Shown: in pieces, positions 9,684 to 64,000 of the stretch | Position numbering within the stretch: position 1 is the stretch's first letter | Layout: the number at the start of each line of letters is the position of its first letter | NCBI GenBank assembly: GCA_051313645.2 | Contig: JBNRSN020000001.1 | Span: forward strand, 73,346,001 to 73,410,000 | Source of the DNA: Centroscyllium fabricii | Taxonomy: Eukaryota | Direction of reading: 5' to 3' | Length of the DNA stretch: 64,000 bases | Program-made: the position numbers and the translations under genes | Notes under the pieces: model-generated | Database searches by the model: none | Seen by the model: the letters and a program-made list of their open reading frames with translations, nothing else | What the model was told of the DNA's origin: nothing

Positions 9684-11127
9684 CTAGAAGCGGCTTGTTA
9701 TCAGCCGTTGACGGACGGCCCTTGCAGTTTCTACATTGTGGGCCTCCCTCCTGCCTTGGTGCTGCTGATGATCATCATCCTCCTCCTCTTCCTCCTCCTC
9801 CTCTGGTGGTGCTACAAGGCCTGGTGGCATTGGCTGGGTCCTGAGGATTGCCAGGTTATGCAGCATGCAGCACACAACGAAGTGGGAGACTCGCTCAGGC
9901 TACTTGTGGTAACCATATTATGTAATTGTTACCACTGTATTATTGTGCCAATAATGGGCTGTGCAGATGTAAGGCACAGCCCTGTAACCTGTGTAATACT
10001 GTTGGGCATAGCCCTGTAACCTGTGTAATACTGTTGGGAGCCAGGTCAGCCACACCTCTAACTCCTCCCCCAGGTGAGGCCCTTTATAGGTGGAAACTGA
10101 CCGAGGCTCCTCATTCCTGTACAGAAGTTCGTTCCGGAGGGTAGCTCCAAACTTAGCGATTAAAAGCCTTTAGTTACGGTAACTACTCGTCGACTCTTTT
10201 AATCGGAGATATTGACGATACGTCACTACTGCAGGGCTCCTCCAGAATGGTCCAGACAGCGGAACCGTTGCTTGAGCACGCTCAGCGATGTTCCTGGTAG
10301 CTTGACGGTTCTCATTGTACTGCAGCTCAGGAGGGGTGTTGGGCGTACGGAGCGGTGTCATCAGCCAGGTGCACAGAGGATATCCCTTGTCCCCGAGAAG
10401 CCAACCTCCTGGGTGATGCGGTGCCTGGAAAAGTTCTGCCACAGTAGTCTGGCGCAGGATGAAGGCACCATGGCTGCTGCCAGGATAGTGGGCATTGTCA
10501 GCGAGTATCAGCTGTCTGTGGTCACAGACCAACGGAACGTTTAAGGAATGGAAGCCCTTTCGGTTGCAGAAATCCTCGGCATTCTCACGCGGAGCACGCA
10601 AAGCCACATACGTGCAGTCAATAGCGCCCTGCACCATGGGGAAGGCCGCTATCCTCGCAAAGCCCATAGCGCATTCTTGCTGCTTGTCCGGGGTCATGGG
10701 GAAAGAGATGTACTCTCGTCTCCTTTTAAAGAGGGCATTTGTGACCTGACGGATGCAGCAATCCATCGCGAACTGGGAGATATTGGCGATGTCCCCAGTA
10801 GCTGATTGAAATGAGCTGGTGGCATAAAAGTTGAGAGCCACTGTTATCTTCTGCCACCGACAGAGACGTCCTGCTCCTCAGTTGAGGCTGCACATCTGGC
10901 TGCAGCAGGTGGCAGAGCTCAGTGACCACCTCCTTGCTGAAGCGCAGCCTTCGCAGACACTGCTCCTCAGACATATTAATGTAGGAGAATTGTTGGTGAA
11001 ATACCCTGGGAGGGTAAGGTCTCCTGTACAGGGGCCTGTTGGCCCTCCTCCCTCTGGCCACGAATGCCACTCGCTCACTGCATCTCTGTGCCCTCCGAAT
11101 CTGATGGCGCAGGACGACGCCCCCCAT
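9684..11127 (-). pseudogene. Harbinger DDE transposase (HARBI1-like), frameshifted and interrupted by an LTR
   Basis: Motifs VQGAIDCT, NRKGFHSLNV, YPGSSH, WLLGDKGYP and CCMLHN across ORFs 10726-11127, 10170-10841 and 9684-9875. Confidence 0.9.
9905..10225 (+). mobile_element. Solo LTR of the 59967 Gypsy family, inserted into the Harbinger transposase
   Basis: Near-identical to 59967-60256 apart from an internal duplication of about 30 bp; TSD CTACT at 9900-9904 and 10226-10230. Confidence 0.93.
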
Positions 11128-17935: not shown

Positions 17936-18422
17936 CAAATGTAAGAAGTCACACACCAGGTTATACCTGTAGTGCAACAGTTTTATTTGAAATCGCATTT
18001 GTCCACCTGTGGTATCCATATTACCAGTGTATATAGTAACCGTATTACCAGTGTATATATATGGATGTGCTCACCTTTGACACTGTACATTGTATGCAAG
18101 GCCAGGTCAGCCACACCTCTAACTCCTCCCCTCAGGTGGGAGCATATGGGTGAGGGCTGCCCTGCCCCCGCTCATTCTCGCCTTGAACTCGACAGGAGAC
18201 TAGCTCCACTGTAAGTGAATAAAAGCCTGTAGTTTGGGTAACTACTCGTCTTTCGATTTTGGTTGACGATACGTCACCACCGCAGTCCAACACCGGCACC
18301 TCCACATCAAGACTAGCTCCATTTTAAGTGAATAAAAGCCTGCAGTTTGGGTAACTACTCGTCTTTCGTGTTTGATTGACGATACGTCACCACCCCAGTC
18401 CAACACCGGCACCTCCACATCA
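17936..18422. mobile_element. Minimal Penelope remnant hosting a solo LTR
   Basis: AAGAAGTCACAC end and CCAACACCGGCACCTCCACATC tail; flanking direct repeat AAGAGACTGGA. Confidence 0.7.
18008..18276 (+). mobile_element. Solo LTR of the same lineage, inside a Penelope remnant
   Basis: TGTGGTA..TGACGATACGTCA ends; TSD CCACC; shares GGTCAGCCACACCTCTAACTCCTCCCC with the other LTRs. Confidence 0.9.
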
Positions 18423-28043: not shown

Positions 28044-31000
28044 TGACGTATCGTCAATAGTCTAATAAAACTAAAGACGCGTAGTTACCTTAACTAAAGG
28101 CTTTTATTAGCTTACAAAGGAGCTACGCTCCGATCGAACATCAGGTACAGAATGAATGGGGGCAGGTCAGGCCCCACCTATAAAGCACTCACCTGAGGGG
28201 ACGAGTTAGAGGTGTGGCTGACCTGACCCCGTGACAGTGTCGCAATACAGAACAGTTGTATCATGCACCCGGGTGCTATACATACACTGTAATATTGATA
28301 ACAATATTAAGGTGGTAATGAGAGTACATATAACGGTTATCACATTCACCCCTTCTTTGAAAATTAAGTCCGGCGGGGTGAATGGACCGAGCAGTTCAGG
28401 ATGAGTTTATCCGGTGGTCGCGTCTGTCTGGAGGACCGCCGGGTCTCTGTTAGCGGTTCTGGTGCCTGCAGTGTCGGCACCGGTGTCGGTGGTGGCGGCG
28501 GCGCTGGTGCCGGTACTGTAGGTGCTGGTGGTGGCGGTGGGGCCGAGCCCTGTGGTTGCTGCTGTGCCTGCGGCTGGTCGTCTGCTTCCTGGTCCTCAGC
28601 TGGCAATGGCGGGGGCTGTGATGCGTATGGTAGTAGTCGAGATGTAGTGGCTGGAGGTGGCCGAAATGCAGTGGCTGGACGTGCTGGGGCCCGACCAAGG
28701 GTTCTGCTGTGGTGCTCCTGGCGGGTGCAAGGTCCCTGATGGAGACGGTGTCCTCGCGCCCGTCCGGGAACTGCACGTACGCGTACTGCGGGTTGGCGTG
28801 CAGCAGCTGCACCTTGTCTACCAGGGGGTCGGTCTTATGGCCGCGGACGTGCTTTCTAAGCAAGACCGGCCCCGGCATCGTGAGCCATGGTGGGAGGGCT
28901 GTCCCCAAAGTCGACTTCCTGGGGAAGGAAAAGAGTAAATCGTGAGGTGTGGCGTTGGTGGCCATACACAACAGAGAGCGGATCGAGTGCAGCGCGTCTG
29001 GGAGGACTGCCTGCCAACGGGACACTGGAAGGCCTCTGGACTTCAGAGCCAGGCTGACCGCCTTCCAGATGATCCTGTTCTCCCTTTCTACCTGGCTGTT
29101 CCCCCGGGGGTTGTAACTGGTCGTTCTGCTCGAGGCAACCCCTTTCTGGAGCAGAAACTGACGCAGTTCGTCGCTCATGAACGACGACCCCCGGTCGCTA
29201 TGGATGTAGCTGGGGAGACCGAAAATGGCGAACAGCATGGTGAAGTGTTTGATCACCGTTGCGCTCATCATATCTGGGCAGAGGAAGGCGAAGGGGAAGC
29301 GGGAGAACTCGTCTACTACCGTGAGGAAGTACGAGTTGCGGTCGGTGGAGGGGAGGGGGCCTTTGAAGTCCACGCTTAAACGTTCAAAGGGGCGGGTGGC
29401 CTTAATGAGGTGCGCCGTGTCTGGCCTGAAAAATTGGGGTTTGCACTCGGCGCAAACAGGGCACTCTCGGGTCATAGCCTTGATCTCTGTGATGGAGTAG
29501 GGGAGGCTACGGGATTTAACGAAGTGGGCAAGTCTGGTGACACCCGGGTGGCAGAGGCGATCGTGGAGGTCCTTCAGCCGGTCTAGCTGGGCACTGGCGC
29601 ACGTTCCCCTGGACAGCACGTCCGGGGGTTCATTGAGTTTGCCTGGTCGGTAAAGAATGTCGTACTCGTAAGTCGAGAGTTCGATCCGCCACCGCAGGAT
29701 ATTATCATTCTTGATTTTACCCTTTTGTTTATTATTAAACATAAACGCGACCGACCGTTGGTCGGTGAGCAGGGTAAAACGCTTACCGGCCAGGTAATGA
29801 CGCCAGTAGCGCACGGCCTCCACGATGGCCTGGGCCTCCTTTTCCACTGCAGAGTGGCGAATTTCGGGTCCCTGTAGGGTGCGGGAGAAAAACGCAACGG
29901 GCCTGCCTGCCTGATTCAGGGTGGCGGCAAGGGCAAAGTCCGAAGCGTCACTCTCCACCTGGAAAGGGATGGACTCATCAACGGCGTGCATGGTCGCCTT
30001 GATAATATCTTCCTTGATCCGGGCGAATGCCGTTTGGGCTTCTACCGAGAGGGGGAAGACGGCAGCCTTAAGGAGCGGTCTGGCCTTATCCACGAACTGG
30101 GGAACCCATTGCGCGTAATAGGAGAAAAATCCCAGACATCTCTTCAGGGCTTTGGGGTTGTGAGGAAGGGGCAGTTCCTGCAAGGGGCGCATACGCTGTG
30201 GGTCTGGGCCGAGGACCCCGTTTTCCACCACGTATCCGAGGATGGTGAGCCGATCTGTACTAAAGACGCACTTATCTTTATTGTATGTGAGATCAAGCCG
30301 TTTCGCCGTGTGGAGAAATTGGCCAGGTTGGCATCGTGGTCCTGCTGGTCATGGCCGCAGATGGTCACGTTGTCCAGGTAGGGGAAGGTGGCCTGCAACC
30401 CGTTCTGGTCAACCATGCGGTCCATCTCCCTCTGGAATACCGACACTCCGTTGGTCACGCCGAAGGGGACCCGGAGGAAGTGGTAGAGCCGACCGTTCGC
30501 CTCGAAGGCGGTGTACGGGCGGTCGGCTTTCCGGATCGGGAGTTGGTGATATGCCGACTTAAGGTCGGTTGTGGAGAACACCTTGTACTGGGCGATCTGG
30601 TTAACCATTTCCGAGCTGCGGGGGAGGGGGTAGGCGTCGAGCCCGGTGTAGCGGTTAATGGTCTGGCTGTAGTCGCTCACCATCTGCTGTTTTTCGCCAG
30701 TCTTAACCACTGCGACCTGGGCCCGCCAGGGGCTGGTGCTGGCTTCAATTATCCCCTCCTTCAGCATACGCCCGACCTCCGACCTGATAAATGTCCGATC
30801 ACCTGCACTGTAACGCCGACTCTTGGTAGCAATGGGCTTGCATTTGGGGTCGAGGTTGGCGAACAGTGAGGGGGGGTCGACTTTCAGGGTGGAAAGGCCG
30901 CAAGTCGGGCTCCGCTTTAGGAAGGGATTGTCCCGGCTACTGACGGTGAGGGGGGACAGGGTCCCGCCGAACTCCATTGTCACGCTCTTAAGGTGGCACT

Positions 31001-33008
31001 GGAAATCCAGTCCCAGTAAGACCGGGGAGCTCAACTGCTTGAGTATGTACAATTTAAAATTACGGTACACGCAGCCCTCAACTGTGAGCGTGACGGAGCA
31101 GTAGCCGGTGACGTCCGCGGTGTGGGACTGTGAAGCAAGGGAGACTTGATAGCGCGTGGGCAGAATCTGCAGTCCGTAGAGCTGTGCTGTATCGGGGTGG
31201 ATGAAGCTCTCTGTGCTTCCTGTGTCGAACAGGCAGTTAGTGGCATGGCCGTTAACTTTAATCCCCATCACGGAATTTGATAGGGTGTGCGGCCTAGCCT
31301 GATCGACTTTCAGGGTGGCAGAGGCCGAAGTGTGTGTCTGGGAGCCCTCCGTTGGCCGGGGCCGTGCACAAGATGGCGGCGCCCGTGGTTCGCACATGGC
31401 TGGCCGCTGAAGACAAGATGGCGGCGCCGGGGGGTCGCACATGGCTGGCCGCTGAAGACAAGATGGCGGCACTGGGGGTCGCACATGGCTGGCCGCTGAA
31501 GACAAGATGGCGGCGCCGGGGAGTCGCACATGGCTGGCCGCTGAAGACAAGATGGTGGCGCCGGGGGGTTGCCCACGGCGGGTCGCTGTGGACGCGGTGG
31601 CGGTGCCCGTGGTTCGCTCGCAGCGAGCCGCGGTGGCTGGGTTGGTGGTGCCCGTGATTCGCACACAGCGAGCCTCGGTGGTTGGGTTGGCGGTGCCCGT
31701 GATTCGCACGCAGCGGGCCGCGCTGGGCTGGATGCCGGCGTTGGGGGTGTCGCTCATAGCCGGTCGTGGCTGAGTTTGGCGTGCCGTGGGCATCAGGGTG
31801 GGGGACGGGGGCGCTTGTACTCTACCCCCGGACCGTCGCTGTATTGCACTGCAGCTGCAGCTTACCTGAGGCCAAGGGCCAGTGTTGGAGCTTTCGCAGC
31901 CCGCGCTGTTGTACCTGGAGCTGGACGCCGGGGCCGATTTGCAGGCCTTGGCGTAGTGTCCCTTTTTCAAGCACCTCTCTCAGGTCGCGGTCCTCACGGG
32001 GCATTTTGCCCGTGGGTGTAGTCCCTGGCCGCAGAAGTAACATCTCTTCCCCGCCGGCGTCTTCGCAGCTGCCGCTGCCGTTGTGGGGGTCTCGACCCGT
32101 TGTGGGGTTGCCCAGGAGTCGAAGGTAGCGTGTGGGTTTGGGCCACCGTACGTCTGTAGCTTGCGGCGTGCGCCCTCCACGGCGTTGGAGACGGAGATCG
32201 CCTCGTCTAGAGTTAAGGTGTCCTTTTCCAGCAGCCGCTGGCGGGCCTCTGCGGACTTGAGTCCGGTTACATAGGCGTCCCGGACGAGGAGGTTTGCCTC
32301 CTCATGTGCCGTCCGTGGTTGGCAGTCACAGGCCCGGACGAGAGCTTGGAGCGCCAGCAGGAACTGTTCGTTAGACTCACTTGATAGTTGTGGTCTGGTC
32401 GCGAGCTCATGTCTGGCGTAGACAGAGTGGACCGGGTGCTCGTAGCATTTCTTCAATTTCTCCACGGCTGCGGTGTACGTCGTAGCGTCGCGGATGAAGG
32501 AGAAAACCCGGCTGGAGATCCTGGACCGGAGAACATGTAGTTTGTTCGCATCAGTTGTAGCCTTGGCGGCGTCCATGTAGGCCTCGACGAGGCCGAACCA
32601 GTGTTCGAAGGTGTTGGCGGCGGCTGGGTCCTGTGGACTAATGTCCAGCTTCTCGGGTTTTACAGCGCCGCTCTCCATTTCAAAATTCTAAGCTAATAAA
32701 ATTGACGTATCGTCAATAGTCTAATAAAACTAAAGACGCGTAGTTACCTTAACTAAAGGCTTTTATTAGCTTACAAAGGAGCTACGCTCCGATCGAACAT
32801 CAGGTACAGAATGAATGGGGGCAGGTCAGGCCCCACCTATAAAGCACTCACCTGAGGGGAGGAGTTAGAGGTGTGGCTGACCTGACCCCGCGACAGTGTC
32901 GCAATACAGAATAGTTGTATCATGCACCCGGCCGCTATACATACACTGTAATATTGGTAACAATATTAAGGTGGTAATAAGAGTTCATATAACGGTCACC
33001 TTACCACA
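28044..33008 (-). mobile_element. Full-length Gypsy (Ty3/Metaviridae) LTR retrotransposon, disabled
   Basis: LTRs 32703-33008 (5') and 28044-28344 (3') with TG..CA ends. TSD CTCTC at 28039-28043 and 33009-33013. PPT AAAGAAGGGGTGAA next to the 3' LTR. Domain order gag-PR-RT-RNaseH-IN. Confidence 0.96.
28364..32678 (-). pseudogene. Gypsy gag-pol: CCHC-type knuckles, protease (LFDTGS), RT (YLDN), RNase H (SDASD), integrase (HHCC and DDE, GPY/F-like tail)
   Basis: ORFs 31980-32678, 30144-31970 and 28450-30231. A TGC-to-TGA stop at 31980-31982 and a frameshift near 30310 are inferred by comparison with the 60281 element. Confidence 0.92.
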
Positions 33009-37928: not shown

Positions 37929-38314
37929 CTGCAGATAAGGGTTAAAAGAACAACCACAGGTTAAAGGGTTCAATGCAACTTGGAACATCCTTCTACCCCA
38001 TTATATCAGTAAGTGAAGCTAAAATACATTCAGGAGAGTGACTCGGAAATTCTCCTATTCCACATTCCCATTCCCCAATCAGCACCGATATTCATATCCC
38101 ATTCTCCAATCAGCATTGACCCTCACACCCCATTCTCCAATCAGCATTGACCCTCACACCCCATTCTCCAATCAGCATTGACCTTCACACCCCATTCCCC
38201 AATCAGCACCGACCCTCACACCCCATTCCCCAATCAGCATTGACCTTCACACTCCATTCTCCAATCCAAGAAGTCACACAACACCAGATTATAGTCCAAC
38301 GGTTTTATTTTAAA

Positions 38315-38352
38315 TCACAAGCTTTCGGAGCTTCTGCCCCTTCGTCAGGTGA
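38315..38352 (-). ncRNA. Minimal hammerhead ribozyme motif
   Basis: Reverse complement of 39763-39800. Confidence 0.75.
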
Positions 38353-39762
38353 AAGAGAGTCTGACTTAAAGAACGCACATGTTTGATGAAGAGAGAAATC
38401 TGATATCTCCCACATCTCACCTCCGTAGAGCTAGACACATAAAGGCTTATTAACATATTTTAAGTGTTACATTTAAACATAGCATATATAGAGAGAGATA
38501 ACAATGTGGTCTCTCCAGTTGTTTCACATCACACCTCAGCTGAGGGACATCAAAGCAGTCAAAGATTTTCCAACATATCAAAGGTTGCAGTCACAAAGGG
38601 TCAAATGTTAGTCTGCTTTAAATCCCACATCATGATTTTTTTTAAAACCAGGATTTTTCACACTTAAAATCGCAGAACAAGCCGAAGATGGTTCGAGTCT
38701 GGATGACTCTACGTCAGGCGGGGTCACATGTAGCGTGACATAAACCCAATATCACGGTTGAGGCCATGCTCATGGGTGCGGAACTTGGCTATCAGCCTCT
38801 GCTCGACGATTTTGCGTTGTCGTGTATCTCGAAGGCCACCCTGGAGAATGCTCACCTGAAGATCGGAAGCTGAATGTCCTTGACCGCTGAAATGTTCCCC
38901 GACTGGGAGGGAACCCTCCTGCCTGGCGACTGTTGCGCGGTGCCCGTTCATCCGTTGTCGTAGTGTCTGCATGGTCTCGCCGATGTACCATGCCCCGGGG
39001 CATCCTTTCCTGCAACGTATGAGGTAGACAACATTGGTCGAGTTACATGAGTATGTACCATGTAGTATGTAACTCGACCAATGTTGTCTACCTCATACGT
39101 TGCAGGAAAGGATGCCCCGGGGCATGGTACATCAGCGAGACCATGCAGACACTACGACAACGGATGAACGGGCACCGCGCAACAATCGCCAGGCAGGAGT
39201 GTTCCCTCCCAGTCGGGGAACATTTCAGCGGTCAAGGACATTCAGCTTCCGATCTTCGGGTGAGCATTCTCCAGGGTGGCCTTCGAGATACACGACAATG
39301 CAAAATCGTCGAGCAGAGGCTGATAGCCAAGTTCCGCACCCATGAGCACGGCCTCAACCGTGATATTGGGTTTATGTCATGCTACATGTGACCCCGCCTG
39401 ACGTAGAGTCATCCAGACTCGAACCATCTTCGGCTTGTTCTGCGATTTTAAGTAAGAAAAATACTGGTTTAAAAAAAAATCATGATGTGGGATTTAAAGC
39501 AGACTAACATTTGACCCTTTGTGACTGCAACCTTTGATATGTTGGAAAATCTTTGACTGCTTTGATGTCCCTCAGCTGAGGTGTGATGTGAAACAACTGG
39601 AGAGACCACATTGTTATCTCTCTCTATATATGCTATGTTTAAATGTAACACTTAAAATATGTTAATAAGCCTTTATGTGTCTAGCTCTACGGAGGTGAGA
39701 TGTGGGAGATCTCAGATTTCTCTCTTCATCAAACATGTGCATTCTTTAAGTCAGACTCTCTT

Positions 39763-39800
39763 TCACCTGACGAAGGGGCAGAAGCTCCGAAAGCTTGTGA
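39763..39800 (+). ncRNA. Minimal type I hammerhead ribozyme motif (Penelope)
   Basis: TCAC-CTGACGA-A-GGGGC-AGAA-GCTCC-GAAA-GCTT-GTGA. Confidence 0.75.
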
Positions 39801-40455
39801 TTTAAAATAAAACCGTTGGACTATAATCTGGTGTTGTGTGACTTCTTGCATTTGTCCACCTCAGTCCAACACCGGCACCTCCACATTATGGCTACATTCT
39901 CCAATCAGCATTGACCTTCACACCCCATTCCCCAATCAGCATTGACCTTCACACCCCATTCTCCAAATCAGCATTGACCTTCACACTCCATTCTCCAATC
40001 AGCATTGACCTTCACACCCCATTCTCCAATCAGCAATGACTGTCACACCCCATTCCCCAATCAGCAATGACCTTCACACCCCATTCTCCAAATCAGCATT
40101 GACCTTCACACTCCATTCTCCAATCAGCATTGACCTTCACACCCCATTCTCCAATCAGCAATGACCGTCACACCCCATTCTCCAATCAGCACCGACCGTC
40201 ACACCCCATTCTCCAATCAGTGCTGACCTCCAGATCCCAGGGGCATACTCATGCTGTTAAATGTAAGAGGCCATAATAATGCTACTTGAAGTAACAGCCT
40301 CGCTCCAATAAAATCTCTGACATACTGTGAGCAACACCACGGAAGGTGCAGCATGTGTGTAAAATGTAGGCTTAACAGTTTATTTTCAAAGGAACATTCA
40401 GCGTGAGTGCAATTAACATATACAATTAGCAGATAGATGTACATTCAAGGCTAAC

Positions 40456-49288: not shown

Positions 49289-51410
49289 ACATAGAAACAT
49301 AAAAACATGGAAGATAGGAGCAGGAGTGGGTCATTCGGCCCCTCGAGCCTGCTCCGCCATTCAATGAGATCATGGCTGATCACCCAAATTCAGTACCCCG
49401 TCCCTGCCTTCTCCCCATATCCCTTGATCCCTCTAGCCTTAAGAAATACATCCAGCTCCTTCTTGAATATATTCAATGAACTAGCCTCCACCGCCCTCTG
49501 TGGCAGAGAATTCCACAGGTTCACCACTCTCTGGGTGAAGAAATTCATCTCTGTCCTAAATGAGTTACCCTTTATCCTTAGACTATGACCCCTGGTTCTC
49601 GACTCTCCGACCATCGGGAACATTCTTCCTGCATCAAGTTTATCGAGATCAGTTAGAATTTTATACGTTTTGATGAGATCCCCTCTCAATCTTCTAAACT
49701 CCAGAGAGTACAAACCCAGTCTACCCAGTCTCTCCTCATAAGTCATTCCTGCCATCCCAGGTATCAGCCTGGTGACTCTTCTCTGCACTCCCTCCATGGC
49801 AAGAACGTCCTTCCTTAGATAAGGAGACCAAAATTGCACACAGTACTCAAGGTGTGGTCTCACCAAGGCCCTGTACAACTGCAGCAAGACCTCCCTGTTC
49901 CTGTACTCGAACCCTTTCGCTATGAAGGCCAACATACCATTTGCCTTCTTGATCGCCTGCTGCACCTGCATGCTCACCTTCAGTGACTGGTGCACAAGGA
50001 CACCCAGGTCCAGTTGTACTTCCCCTTCTCCCAATCTATTGCCATTCAGATAATAGTCGGCATTTCTGTTTTTGCCCCCAAAGTGGATAACCTCGCCTTT
50101 ATCCACATTATACTGCATCTGCCATGTCTCAGCCCACTCGCCCAACCTGTCCAAATCATCCTGGAGCTTCCTGGTATCTTCCTCGCAGCACACACGCCCT
50201 CCCAGCTTTGTGTCATCTGCAAACTTGGAGACATTACATTTAGTTCCCTTTTCTAAATCATTAATGTATATTGTGAATAGCTGGGGTCCCAGGACCGATC
50301 GCTGCGGTACCCCACTAGTCACTGCCTGCCACTCGGAAAGAGACCAATTCTCAATCCAAGTCAATACCTTGCCCCCAATCCCATGTGCCCTAACTTTATA
50401 TGCTAATCTCTTGTGCGGGACCTTGTTGAACGCCTTCTGAAAGTCTAAGTACACCACATCCACTGGTTCTCCCTGATCAATTTTCCCAGTTACATCCTCA
50501 AAAAATTCCAGTAGATTAGTCAAGCACGATTCACCTTTTGTAAATCCATGTTGACTTTGTCCGATCCTGCCACTGATTTTCAAGTGCTCAGCTATTACAT
50601 CCTTTATTATGGACTCCAGCATCTTCCCCACTACTGAGGTCAGGCTTACTGGTCTGTAATTTCCCGCTTTCTCCCTACCACCCTTTTTGAATAGTGGGGT
50701 AACATTAGCCACCCTCCAATCCATGGGTACAATTCCAGATTCCATCGATTGCTGGAAGATAATCAGTAATGCATCCACTATTTCTAGGGCCACTTCCTTA
50801 AGTACCCTAGGATGTAGATTATCAGGCCCCGGGGATTTATCAGCCTTTAATCCCATCAATTTCCCGAACACCATTTCCCTGCAAATACGGATTTCTTTCA
50901 GTTCCTCCCTTTCATCAAACCTTATGCTCCCCAGTATCTCTGGGAGATTACTTGTGTCCTCCTTTGTGAAGACAGAACCAAAATATGCATTTAATTGGTC
51001 TGCCATTTCTTTGTTCCCCGTTATCACTTCCCCTGCTTCTGACTGTAAGGGACCTACACTTGATTTCACTAATCTTTTTCTCTTCACATATCTATAAAAG
51101 CTCACAGTCAGTTTGTATATTCCCTGCAAGCTTGCTTTCATATTCTATTTTCCCCTTCTTAATTAATCCCTTTGTCCTCCTTTGTTGAATCCTAAACTGT
51201 TGCCAATCCTCAGGGTTACCGCTTTTTTTGGCCAGTTTATACGCCCTTTCCTTTGATCTTATGCTATCCCTAATTTCTCTCGGCAGCCACGGTTGCGTTA
51301 CCCTTTTTGTTTTATTCTTGTGCCACACTGTGATGAACAACTTCTGTAGTTCATCCATGCAGCCTTTGAATATTTACCATTGCCTATTTACTGTCAACCC
51401 TTTGAGTGAC
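49289..51410 (-). mobile_element. 5'-truncated CR1 LINE with a 583-aa RT ORF
   Basis: ORF 49390-51141 with RT motifs and a small in-frame deletion; nested within another CR1 3' fragment (49105-51595). Confidence 0.95.
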
Positions 51411-59004: not shown

Positions 59005-59966
59005 CTTTAAAGAACGGAAATATGTAAATTTAACAGCAGTGTGCTTCCCAGTTCCTGACAGAGAATATATCTGCGTTTCCAGTTAATTTTGGAGCTCTAG
59101 ACTTATTTGTAAAAATAGTACTGAAAGCATCAGGATACATTCCGTGAATGGGCCCCTTAGAGCGCTATTACTATAAGGAGCTTCCACTTGTCCCCTTAGC
59201 AGAAAGGATTTGTGAGTGCAGCTGATTAGAAGTGAGGCAGGCAGTTAGTAAAGTGGCTCATTTTTTATAAACATGCTATTTTTGTTGTCAATTTTACAAA
59301 TCAAATTTGCTTTTAAGTACCTGAGTGCAATCATATAACTACCACCCATTGTACCAATACCCATAATATGTGCAATCCTGTCACGACTGTAAATACGCTG
59401 AATTCGTCATTAATACAAAACCCAGTCCATTAATAACAATCCTGCAAAGTTGACGGGAGATTCACTCGGACCATCTCTCTGTCCCCGACCGTCTGTCTCT
59501 CTCTCTGTTCCCGCTCTACCCATCCTTCACTTCCCCGCATTCTCGGCCTCTCCCTCTCAAAACTCAAAGCAGCTGCCAATCAAACAAAATATGAAAAACT
59601 GAACTGACAAGATGCTTGCATTTGAGCTCAATGGCTCGGTCCTTCTCTCAGATCTGTGCAGACTGTGCCATCTCCTCCGAGTGAACTTGGCTTTTAATCT
59701 CAGTCAGCATCACGACACAGTTTGATCACTTCCTGTCCCGAATTCCGGCCCTTTCCTTCTTGCTGCTGTTTTTTCATCCTTCAAACTGCGAAGCCCCAGA
59801 ATGGCAGCACTGTTCAACCAGTGGCCGGAGATGATCGTCCAACATCCCAGCACCCGACATTCCCCCGGCGTCCGTGGCAATCCCACTTCATTGCAACGAG
59901 CTGATTTTGCGTCAGCGAGCAAGGGCAGGACATGGTGACTGTCACCACCTTCATCTTCACCATGAC

Positions 59967-62900
59967 TGTGGTAACCGTATTATGTAATTGATTACCACTG
60001 TATTATTGTAACAATAATGGGCTGTGCAGATGTAAGGCACAGCCCTGTAACCTGTGTAATACTGTTGGGAGCCAGGTCAGCCACACCTCTAACTCCTCCC
60101 CCAGGTGAGGCCCTTTATAGGTGGAAACTGACCGAGGCTCCTCATTCCTGTACAGAAGTTCGTTCCGGAGGGTAGCTCCAAACTTAGCGATTAAAAGCCT
60201 TTAGTTACGGTAACTACTCGTCGACTCATTTAATCGGAGATATTGACGATACGTCAATTTTAATTGCTAAATATTTTAAAATGGAGAGCAGCGCAGTTAA
60301 ACCAGAGAAGCTAGACATCAGTCCCCAGGACCTGGCCGCTGCTACCACGTTCGAACACTGGTTCGGTCTCCTGGAGGCCTACATGGACGCTGCCAAGGCT
60401 ACAATGGACAGGAACAAATTGCAGGTCCTCCGGTCGAGGATCTCCAGCAGGGTATTCTCCCTCATCAGAAACACCTCAACCTACCCAGCGGCTGTGCAGA
60501 AACTAAGAAAATGCTACGAGCGCCCGGTCCATTCGGTCTACGCCCGACATGTGCTTGCGACCAGATCTCAGCTACCGGGTGAGACCAACGAGCAGTTCGA
60601 GCAAGCGCTCCAGGCCCTGGTACGGGTCTGTGGCTGCCAAGCCAGAACAGCTGAAGAGGAGGCGAATCTCCTCGTTCGGGACGCTTACGTTACGGGTCTA
60701 AGGTGTGTAGAAGCCCGCCAGCGGCTACTGGAGAAAGACACTCTGTCCCTCGAAGAGGCGATTACGATAGCCAACTCAGTAGAGGGAGCCCGAAACAAAT
60801 TACAGGCGTACAGCGGCACTAACCCGCACACCTACGACATATGGGCCGCGCCACAATGGGCCCTGGCCTGGGCAGCACCACAACGGGTCGAGACCCCCAC
60901 GATGGCTGCGACAGCCACAAAAGATAAGCGCTGCTACTTCTGCAGCCAGGGATTGCACCCAAGAGCGAGATGCCCAGCCAGGACAGCGACCTGCGAGAGG
61001 TGCGCTAAGAAAGGACACTATGCTAAAGCCAGCAGATCAGCTCCAGCAGCGCCTAACCCAAGGTACAACAGTGCAGCCTGTGAGAGCACCGACAGACACC
61101 AGGTAAGCTGCAATAGCAGCGCGATCCAGCAAATGTCCGGGGGTAGAAAACAAGCGCCCCCATCTCCCACCCCGATGCGGCAAAGGCCGGCCAAGCGCGA
61201 CCCCCCAACGCAGCCGGCTGCGTGCGAATCACGGGCACTGCCAACCCGACCACCGCGGCTCGCTGCGTGCGAATCACGGGCACCGCCAACCCGACCACCG
61301 CGGTCCGCTGCGTGCGAATCACGGGCGCCGCCAGCGCGCGCACAGCGGCCCACCATGTGCGACCCCTCGGCGACGCCATCTTGTATCCAGGGCCCCTCCA
61401 TGTGCGAGCCAGGGGTGCCGCCATTTTGTATCCAGGGCCCCGCCATGTGCGAGCCAGGGGCGCCGCCATTTTGTATCCAGGGCCCCACCATGTGCGAGCC
61501 AGGGGCGCCGCCATCTTGTGTACAACCCCGACCAGCAAGGGCCCCACACACACGAAAACGCACGGCTGCGGCGGCCAGACTCAGAGTGAACCAGGACAGG
61601 CCACATACCCTGTCTAATTCTATCATGCCTATTAAGATTAACGACTACACTGTTAACTGCCTGTTCGACACAGGAAGCACTGAGAGCTTCGTACACCCCG
61701 ATACAGTGCAGCGCTGCGGACTGCAGGTCCGGCCCACTAACTACCAAGTCTCCCTAGCTTCACAGTCCCACACCGCGGACGTCACCGGCTACTGCTCCGT
61801 CACGCTCACAGTCAAGGGGCGCGTGTACCATAATTTTAAATTGTATACCCTCCAGCAGTTGTGTGCCCCAGCCTTACTAGGTTTGGATTTCCAGTGCCAC
61901 CTCAAGAGCGTGACAATGGAGTTCGGCGGGACCTTGCCCCCCCCTCACCGTCAGTAGCCGGGGCAATCCCTTCCCAAAGCGGAGCCCGGCCTGCGGCCTC
62001 TCCACCCTGAAAACCGACCCCCCCTCGCTGTTCGCCAACCTCGATCCCAAGTGCAAACCCATTGCCACTAAGAGTCGGCGGTACAGTGAGGGGGATTGCA
62101 CGTTTATCAGGTCGGAGGGCGGGCGGATGCTGAAGGAGGGGATAATTGAAGCCAGCACCAGCCCCTGGCGTGCCCAAGTTGTAGTGGTGAAGTCTGGCGA
62201 GAAACAACGGCTGGTGATCGATTACAGCCAGACTATCAACCGCTACACCGGGCTCGACGCCTACCCCCTTCCCCGCATCTCGGACATGGTCAATCAGATT
62301 GTAACCTTCAATTACGTTCTCGGAGTCGAGTAGTAGATTAGAACAATCAGGCTTTTATTCACTACAGTTAGATTACACACCAGCAAGCTGACTGTCCCCT
62401 GGAATGGCATGGGGGATGGGGGCAGTCACTTATATACCTCCTCCAGCGGGGGAGGAGTCATGGGCGGAGCCGGGTATATTCCAGGTATCATCTCACAGTG
62501 GAATACAGTACAGGTATAGGTTACATGGTGATACATGGTGATTGGCTACATACAGTGATATACACGTTTATCACACAGATCGCCCAGTACAAGGTGTTCT
62601 CTACGATCGACCTTAAATCGGCGTATCATCAGCTCTCGATCCGGAAAGCCGACCGCCCCTACACCGCCTTCGAGGCGAACGGTCGGCTCTACCACTTCCT
62701 CCGGGTCCCCTTTGGCGTGACCAACGGAGTGTCAGTGTTCCAACGGGAGATGGACCGTATGGTTGACCAAAATGACTTGCAGGCCACCTTCCCCTACCTG
62801 GACAACGTGACCATCTGCGGCCACGACCAGCAGGACCACGATGCCAATCTGGCCAAATTCCTCGACACGGCGGAGAAGCTGGACCTTACGTATAACAAAG

Positions 62901-64000
62901 ACAAATGTGTCTGTAATACAGACCGGCTCGCCATCCTCGGATACATGGTGGAGAACGGGGTCCTCGGCCCCGACCCACAGCGTATGCGACCCCTGCAAGA
63001 ACTGCCCCTACCTCACAACCCCAAAGCCTTGAGATGCCTAGGATTTTTCTCCTATTATGCACAATGGGTCCCACAGTTCGCAGATAAGGCTAGACCACTC
63101 CTCAAGGCTGCCGTTTTCCCCCTTTCTGTAGAAGCCCAAACGGCATTCGCAAGGATAAAGGAAGACATCATCAAGGCGACCATGCTCGCTGTTGATGAAT
63201 CCATCCCTTTCCAGGTGGAGAGTGACGCTTCGGACTTCGCCCATGCTGCCACCCTGAATCAGGCAGGCAGGCCCGTAGCGTTTTTCTCCCGCACCCTACA
63301 GGGACCCGAAACTCGCCACTCCACAGTGGAAAAGGAGGCCCAGGCCATCGTGGAGGCCGTGCGCTACTGGCGTCATTACCTGGCCGGTAAGCGTTTTACC
63401 CTGCTCACCGACCAACGGTCGGTGGCATTTATGTTTAATAATAAACAACGGGGTAAAATCAAGAATGATAAGATCCTGCGGTGGCGGATCGAACTCTCGA
63501 CTTACGAGTACGACATTCTTTACCGACCAGGCAAACTCAATGAACCCCCGGACGCACTGTCCAGGGGAACGTGCGCCAGTGCCCAGCTAGACCGGCTGAA
63601 GGACCTCCATGATCGACTCTGTCACCTGGGTGTCAGCAGACTTGCCCACTTTGTCAAATCCCGTAGCCTCCCCTACTCCATCACGGAGATCAAGGCTATG
63701 ACCCGAGAGTGCCCTGTCTGCGCCGAGTGCAAACCCCACTTTTTCCGGCCAGACACGGCGCACCTCATTAAGGCCACCCGCCCCTTTGAACGTCTCAGCG
63801 TGGACTTCAAAGGCCCCCTCCCCTCCACCGACCGCAACTCATACTTCCTCACGGTCGTGGATGAGTTCTCCTGATTCCCCTTCGCCTTCCCCTGCGCAGA
63901 TATGACGAGCGCAACGGTGATAAAACACTTCACCACGCTGTTCGCCATTTTCGGTCTCCCCAGCTACATCCATAGCGACCGGGGGTCATCGTTCATGAGC
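59967..64000 (+). mobile_element. Second Gypsy element of the same lineage, truncated by the window end
   Basis: 5' LTR 59967-60256, gag-PR ORF 60281-61957, frameshift at a C-run near 61940. RT is interrupted by a solo LTR; RT-RNaseH-IN runs to a premature TGA at 63872-63874. Predicted TSD ATGAC. Confidence 0.95.
62300..62575 (-). mobile_element. Solo LTR inserted into the Gypsy RT
   Basis: TG..CA ends; TSD CAGAT at 62295-62299 and 62576-62580; TATA-like and AATAAAAGCC motifs on the minus strand. Confidence 0.9.

Follow-up and report, generated by a model that had tools for sequence, protein, structure and literature searches.

I propose that the 13 bases beginning one letter past the 5' LTR of a Ty3/Gypsy element in Centroscyllium fabricii are the primer site of an element that primes its own reverse transcription and is not a chromovirus. 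On the sequence evidence set out below I hold this reading to be probable, and self-priming in some form to be very likely. The element, called here element 2, lies in a stretch of 64,000 nucleotides (the window: contig JBNRSN020000001.1, positions 73,346,001 to 73,410,000, forward strand), which also holds another element of the family, element 1, and two solo LTRs (Table 1). A preliminary description had noticed that the LTR pairs with the leader and took the pairing for an RNA switch in which the poly(A) signal has two alternative partners. The pairing is real: it is conserved, it covaries, and it is confined to the 5' end of the RNA. What that description overlooked is that the leader segment stands where a primer-binding site should be, in an element with no site for a tRNA.

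The LTR-leader duplex

Element 2 is 5.1 kb long, with genes in the order gag, protease, RT, RNase H and integrase, and its membership in Ty3/Gypsy follows from that order of pol domains, its TG...CA LTRs, its polypurine tract and a 5-bp target duplication. The 3' LTR, 98% identical to the 5' LTR, falls just past the end of the window (equivalent to about 64796-65082). The closest named relatives of its proteins are those of a stingray (69-74%). The LTR ends at 60256, a single A follows at 60257, the paired leader segment begins at 60258, and only 24 nt in all separate the LTR from the gag ATG at 60281.

Table 1. Features of element 2 and of related copies, in window coordinates
Feature	Position	Strand	Remarks
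5' LTR of Gypsy element 2	59967..60256	+	TG...CA
TATA-like box	60114..60121	+	67-69 nt upstream of paired LTR segment
Initiator-like motif	60142..60147	+	predicted start A 60144, 28 nt downstream of TATA
Small GGAG/CTCC hairpin	60167..60179	+	fold prediction; ends 4-5 nt upstream of paired segment; 87/100 copies
LTR segment, predicted self-primer	60184..60196	+	3' end 60196; contains poly(A) hexamer 60190-60195
Local hairpin, opening at predicted cut site	60197..60212	+	GCC...GGT, G-U closed
U5-internal partial complement	60227..60236	+	optional; one mismatch in element 2
Terminal U5 hairpin, including offset A	60243..60257	+	fold prediction and copy survey
Primer-binding-site position	60258..60270	+	complementary to 60184-60196; without TGG
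gag-protease reading frame	60281..61957	+	two Cys-His knuckles: 60932-60973, 60992-61033
RT-RNase H-integrase start	62372..63874	+	RT motif YLDN at 62795-62806
Element 1, same family as element 2	28044..33008	-	5-bp target duplication
Element 1, paired segment	32761..32773	-	
Element 1, primer site	32689..32701	-	gag ATG 32678; YLDN RT (~30380)
Solo LTR, element 2 subfamily	9905..10225	+	5-bp target duplication
Solo LTR, third subfamily	18008..18277	+	without U5-internal complement

The window contains other repeats as well. The 3' part of the third-subfamily solo LTR, with some of its flank, is partially duplicated in tandem at 18314-18390. Both elements carry 45-nt tandem repeats within the gag-protease frame (31323-31738 in element 1, about 61200-61500 in element 2). 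A 786-nt inverted repeat, near-perfect (98%) and with an 18-nt spacer, occupies 38263-39852 with 31-nt tandem arrays on its flanks, and the minus strand of 49390-51144 encodes an RVT_1 domain in a frame of 584 codons, probably that of a non-LTR element.

Read directly, the two segments of element 2 form 12 Watson-Crick pairs and one G-U pair, and three positions differ from element 1 on each side with pairing preserved, just as first described. The G-U pair is private to this copy, since a Watson-Crick pair stands there in 28 of the 29 sister loci listed. Folding gave z = -2.9 for 60166-60283 and z = -4.6 for the counterpart in element 1.

To go beyond two elements, the genome was searched with a junction pattern in which, of the LTR segment, only the final A is fixed and the leader's paired bases are all left free. 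It has 101,554 exact matches, against 4 for the reversed pattern, and the family is thus a major part of this 7.2-Gb genome. The first 100 matches by position, none excluded, were taken as a sample. In this larger alignment the two segments covary and do not vary independently. The offset base is A in every copy; columns 1 to 13 are Watson-Crick in 94-99% of them, column 14 in 19%. The 13-bp duplex is perfect in 76 copies; with leaders permuted among copies the average is 7.7 and the highest value 17. Mutual information peaks along the diagonal, and five columns (6, 8, 9, 12 and 13) vary and covary, column 8 with all four pair types. A chance origin of the pairing is ruled out by this permutation together with the shuffles given below.

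On a tree of gag sequences, paired columns changed jointly 5, 14, 10, 12 and 7 times, against separate sums of 9, 26, 16, 20 and 10, while unpaired columns 14-16 were nearly additive (27, 19 and 16 joint changes against sums of 31, 21 and 17). With no more than 2-5 independent pairs available per column, no sign test was significant by itself (p 0.06-0.5); among the pairs listed, the opposite direction had a mean of 0.0. A search for rare double changes gave 1,154 genome matches, a test confounded by a sister family, which supplied 28 of the 30 loci fetched; the two from the main family were one complementary and one non-complementary. Sister-family variants included, the loci fetched from this genome display 25 distinct perfectly complementary 13-mers, too many for any one host RNA to match.

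Two details of the duplex bear on what follows. G-U pairs occupy 4 of its 1300 cells, never in a variant seen twice, whereas the hairpin immediately downstream, present in 96 copies, is closed by G-U in 93. An AG 11 nt upstream of the predicted cut site is near-invariant (98-99% of copies); a role as splice acceptor was rejected, since TG stands at that point in sister and outside families. The genome contains two more families of the clade (loci L352-L380 and L184-L213), with other LTRs and the same duplex, and the first of them keeps the terminal hairpin with changed letters.

The layout is found outside this genome too. Scans with an RT alignment yielded 80 metagenome loci and 13 loci from a genome collection, and 42 Gag matches came from outside this genome, of which 39 could be evaluated, the other 3 lying too near a contig end. 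Upstream of gag, 26 of the 39 have a perfect inverted repeat of 13-19 bp in different letters (shuffle maximum 12), though several are copies of the same two families and the 26 cases are hence not independent. Five of the remaining 13 keep the register with a mismatch, and eight are decayed or ambiguous. Among 25 outside representatives, 20 form 13 pairs or more from one base past CA onward and contain no more than one mismatch. In these loci the paired segment ends TAA(A); a hairpin of the pattern RCC...GGY follows it in 15 of 20, and in 19 of 20 a G stands ten bases from the segment's end. Named relatives by protein are found in corals, a sea anemone, flatworms, Trichinella, a crayfish, a spider and a leafhopper. 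Animal retrotransposons of the clade also turn up within contigs labelled as bacterial genomes (L171-L175, L179), likely through host contamination; scans of viral contigs found no relatives.

Probable priming without a tRNA and the likeness to Tf1/sushi

An LTR element requires a primer exactly one step past its 5' LTR, and the 3' end of a tRNA would need TGG there. A half-tRNA primer would fix the sequence of the site. By these signs the family has no tRNA-complementary primer site: TGG occurs in none of the 100 leaders, and the leader takes 25 variant forms. Within the window a search for tRNA genes found none, and Rfam gave no match at 59900-60400. A leader segment at the primer-binding position of an element with no tRNA site makes priming a likelier main role for the duplex than masking of the poly(A) signal.

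There is a well-studied precedent. In Tf1 of fission yeast the first 11 nt of the RNA pair with the primer site and RNase H cuts the duplex (PMC7175516, PMC4600332, PMC5341516). Where PMC7175516 and PMC6317226 treat the matter, Tf1 is the only element for which self-priming is shown, and it is inferred for chromovirus kin and one plant Copia lineage; the elements listed as self-priming are the Tf1/sushi group, Tcn1 and TAR Copia (PMC6317226, PMC6934838, PMC3601003). A search of open papers on self-priming or missing tRNA sites found no report for the present clade.

Elements of the Tf1/sushi type exist in this same genome and serve as a control. Sixteen loci with an SH3_Tf2-1 domain were fetched, and two of three scanned frames hold a chromodomain as well (L343, L347). 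Four of the loci (L336, L337, L339, L350) have an 11-bp complement at a 1-nt offset, a further one has 9 bp, and two have 6 bp. This is the layout described for Tf1 (PMC7175516), and in these sushi-like loci the distance from a TATTTAAG-like box down to the paired segment is about 31 nt. The layout of the family thus matches a self-priming one. With Tf1 and Tf2 of Schizosaccharomyces pombe, Tj1 and the rest of Tf1/sushi it shares the lack of a tRNA site, a primer site complementary to its own R, and the Ty3/Gypsy domain order; the 1-nt offset it shares with the sushi-like elements of this genome. It differs in the length of the duplex, 13 bp in this family and 13-19 in relatives against 11 in that group, and in the predicted position of the segment, which in Tf1 is at the cap and here would be some 39 nt inside R, overlapping the poly(A) signal.

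It differs also in its proteins. Tf1/sushi elements have a chromodomain and SH3_Tf2-1; this family has neither, two Gag knuckles, and commonly an RT with YxDN. Both domains are absent from the two complete pol frames of relatives scanned, and neither is listed for 120 homologues. On a tree of RT-RNase H (FastTree, midpoint root, no named reference, rows with fewer than 230 aligned residues left out), 79 of 93 rows form one clade with support 100 and a stem of 1.0 change per column, apart from the chromodomain control group of 10 rows. Members are 22-29% identical in this region to the sushi-like elements. By these sequence measures the family is not a chromovirus.

The two Cys-His knuckles in Gag are typical of the Mag lineage. 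Short LTRs, a 5-bp target duplication and a compact element are further points of likeness, and Mag elements of mosquitoes have sites for tRNA-Leu, -Ser and -Arg (PMC3286476), which this family does not. CsRn1 and Saci-2 have a CHCC or CCCH Gag motif and a tRNA-Trp site (PMC2582038); membership in that clade was rejected, since the knuckles here are of CCHC type and no tRNA site exists. TAR Copia elements (Houba, Osr-1) and Tcn1 are alike in that self-priming is predicted from LTR complementarity (PMC6317226). They illustrate that the trait recurs, and belong to Copia or chromovirus lineages in plants, with no overlap with this clade shown.

The RT catalytic motif of both elements is YLDN. Among 120 homologues, 84 have xDN, 30 have xDD and 6 gave no match. 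In Ty1 the same change from D to N cuts the polymerase rate 223-fold and blocks transposition (PMC2148107). The motif is not tied to the pairing, for YxDD members (L112, L140) are also paired. A literature search for YLDN or YXDN returned no relevant report, and a search for a motif by which the clade might be named had no match in 4 of 5 supplementary files of PMC6238403 and 11 of 14 of PMC8556966.

A proposed mechanism and its competitors

Where does the primer lie within the RNA? A TATA-like box stands 60-75 nt (mostly 67-69) upstream of the paired segment in 88 of the 100 copies, and an initiator-like TCATTY 38-41 nt upstream in 81. In the two other clade families here the TATA box is about 72 and about 95 nt upstream, and two of the three families have an initiator-like motif about 29 nt downstream of TATA. 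From this spacing a start about 39 nt upstream is predicted, which would place the primer inside R and over the poly(A) signal. Most outside loci have no TATA at a fixed distance from the segment, so the argument for an internal primer comes from this genome. Three sets of contigs aligned to element 1 showed no starts or ends. A segment inside R is outside the geometry demonstrated for Tf1, where the primer is the first 11 nt, and the predicted position counts against the proposal to that degree.

I envisage the following. The R segment would fold onto the primer site. As in Tf1, RNase H of the element would cut the 3' end of the duplex, between AAAA and GCC, beside the conserved hairpin, and the new 3'-OH would be extended into U5. 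Unlike in Tf1, the primer would be internal to R and would carry a 5' tail, transcription being predicted to begin about 39 nt upstream. Plus-strand copying of the primer would then rewrite the primer site, giving strict Watson-Crick covariation without two separate mutations. The covariation may thus come from the primer copied into the primer site and not from paired, selected mutations. The near-absence of G-U in the duplex, next to a hairpin that is closed by G-U, fits templated copying, although wobble pairs might also be selected against if an RNA-RNA duplex has to be cut at a precise point. In Tf1 a copied primer site is present in about half of the cDNA (PMC11042837). Ty1 and Ty3 do not pass their primer on to the primer site (PMC5371799), and templated covariation is therefore not assured.

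The duplex would bring a second benefit by hiding the 5' copy of the poly(A) signal. In HIV-1 base pairing in the poly(A) hairpin hides the 5' AAUAAA; unlike in HIV-1, the partner here is the primer-binding site, outside the LTR, and so exists only at the 5' end. The hexamer in the LTR segment is AATAAA in 60 of the 100 copies and ATTAAA in 38, with none downstream in U5. Folding predicts it closed in the 5' context (unpaired probability at most 0.1 in 86 copies) and mostly open in the LTR alone (at least 0.5 in 68). As a second role of the duplex, such masking is plausible.

Could masking be the main role, with the U5 complement as alternative partner and priming achieved by other means? I think it unlikely. 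The restriction of the hexamer to two forms in 98 copies, its predicted exposure at the 3' end, the start predicted about 45 nt upstream of it and some covariation of the U5 complement all suit the idea. Yet it leaves unexplained the fixed register at LTR end +1, common to the sushi-like control, and the want of any other primer site in a leader of 21-29 nt. A canonical hexamer lies within the paired segment in 12 of 20 outside loci; AATAAA and ATTAAA are absent there in the other 8, 3 of which have a hexamer downstream, outside the duplex.

The U5 partner is itself optional. As first described, the 9905 solo LTR has a perfect 10-bp complement, and the complement does covary to a degree (mean 7.3 nt over the 100 copies, against a permutation mean of 6.1 and maximum of 6.5). 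It is poorly conserved, however: both LTRs of element 2 have a mismatch, only 59 copies reach 8 nt or more, 38 have at most 6 nt, and in one subfamily it failed to track a change in the LTR segment. A partner that is optional does not support the two-partner switch as a trait of the family. What stands of the switch is a conserved, covarying duplex that covers the hexamer at the 5' end. The hairpins said to be retained fared unequally: the terminal one has 5-6 of its 6 pairs in 99 copies, while TAGTTA/TAACTA keeps 5 bp in 58 copies and 4 bp in 21, and is missing from the other 21.

A second possibility is that the 3' copy of R does the priming, the 3' end of the genome pairing with the primer site and being cut past the hexamer, so that the 5' R stays intact. 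This would fit a start 39-66 nt upstream and the overlap with the poly(A) signal, and sequence alone cannot tell which copy of R pairs. I nevertheless consider it improbable. The 5' copy, at a distance of only about 60 nt, is the predicted winner (duplex probability at least 0.8 in 83 of 100 copies), and I know of no example of priming by a 3' R copy. Ty3 offers some support: its initiation complex uses sequence of the 3' U3, and its two active sites are about 13 bp apart (PMC5371799).

Quite improbable, in my judgment, is that the geometry is simply that of Tf1, with a second, TATA-less start at the 5' edge of the duplex and the first 11-13 nt as primer. Tf2 does use alternative starts (PMC5341516), the 13-bp boundary is sharp, most outside loci lack a TATA at a fixed distance, and the near-invariant AG 11 nt before the cut, with G at -10 in 19 of 20 outside loci, might mark such a start. 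It is contradicted by the TATA boxes upstream in three families, two with an initiator-like motif, and by the sister family's T at -11. It is, in any event, a variant of self-priming and not an alternative to it.

Scarcely credible is a leader that binds a host RNA (a half-tRNA, as used by copia-type elements (PMC6317226), or some other), its match to the LTR being incidental or due to chance: the segment is A/T-rich, but the leader tracks its own LTR through 25 variants, permutation breaks the match and Rfam recognizes nothing here. Priming from the junction with the poly(A) tail was also rejected: in every family the run of T in the primer site is as long as the run of A in the genomic sequence (3 or 4), and the segment has no hexamer upstream of it.

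What self-priming would mean

Beyond the self-primed site itself, I put forward a wider view with more hesitation, as something possible but still short of likely: that an unnamed, animal-wide clade of Gypsy elements evolved tRNA-free priming apart from Tf1/sushi, with a primer cut from the poly(A) signal within R, a single duplex that both primes and shuts off 5' polyadenylation, and an RT that is mostly YxDN.

If self-priming is true of this family, then priming without tRNA is a repeated invention and this is a second Gypsy lineage to have made it, one with close relatives in rays, corals, flatworms, nematodes and arthropods. Control by tRNA fragments would then not reach one of the largest repeat families in this 7.2-Gb genome. 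If the primer is internal, the point at which plus-strand copying stops would have to follow a new rule. And the natural YxDN enzyme offers a test of why Ty1 needs its third aspartate; the family has reached some 100,000 copies in one vertebrate genome although a change of this type blocks transposition of Ty1 (PMC2148107).
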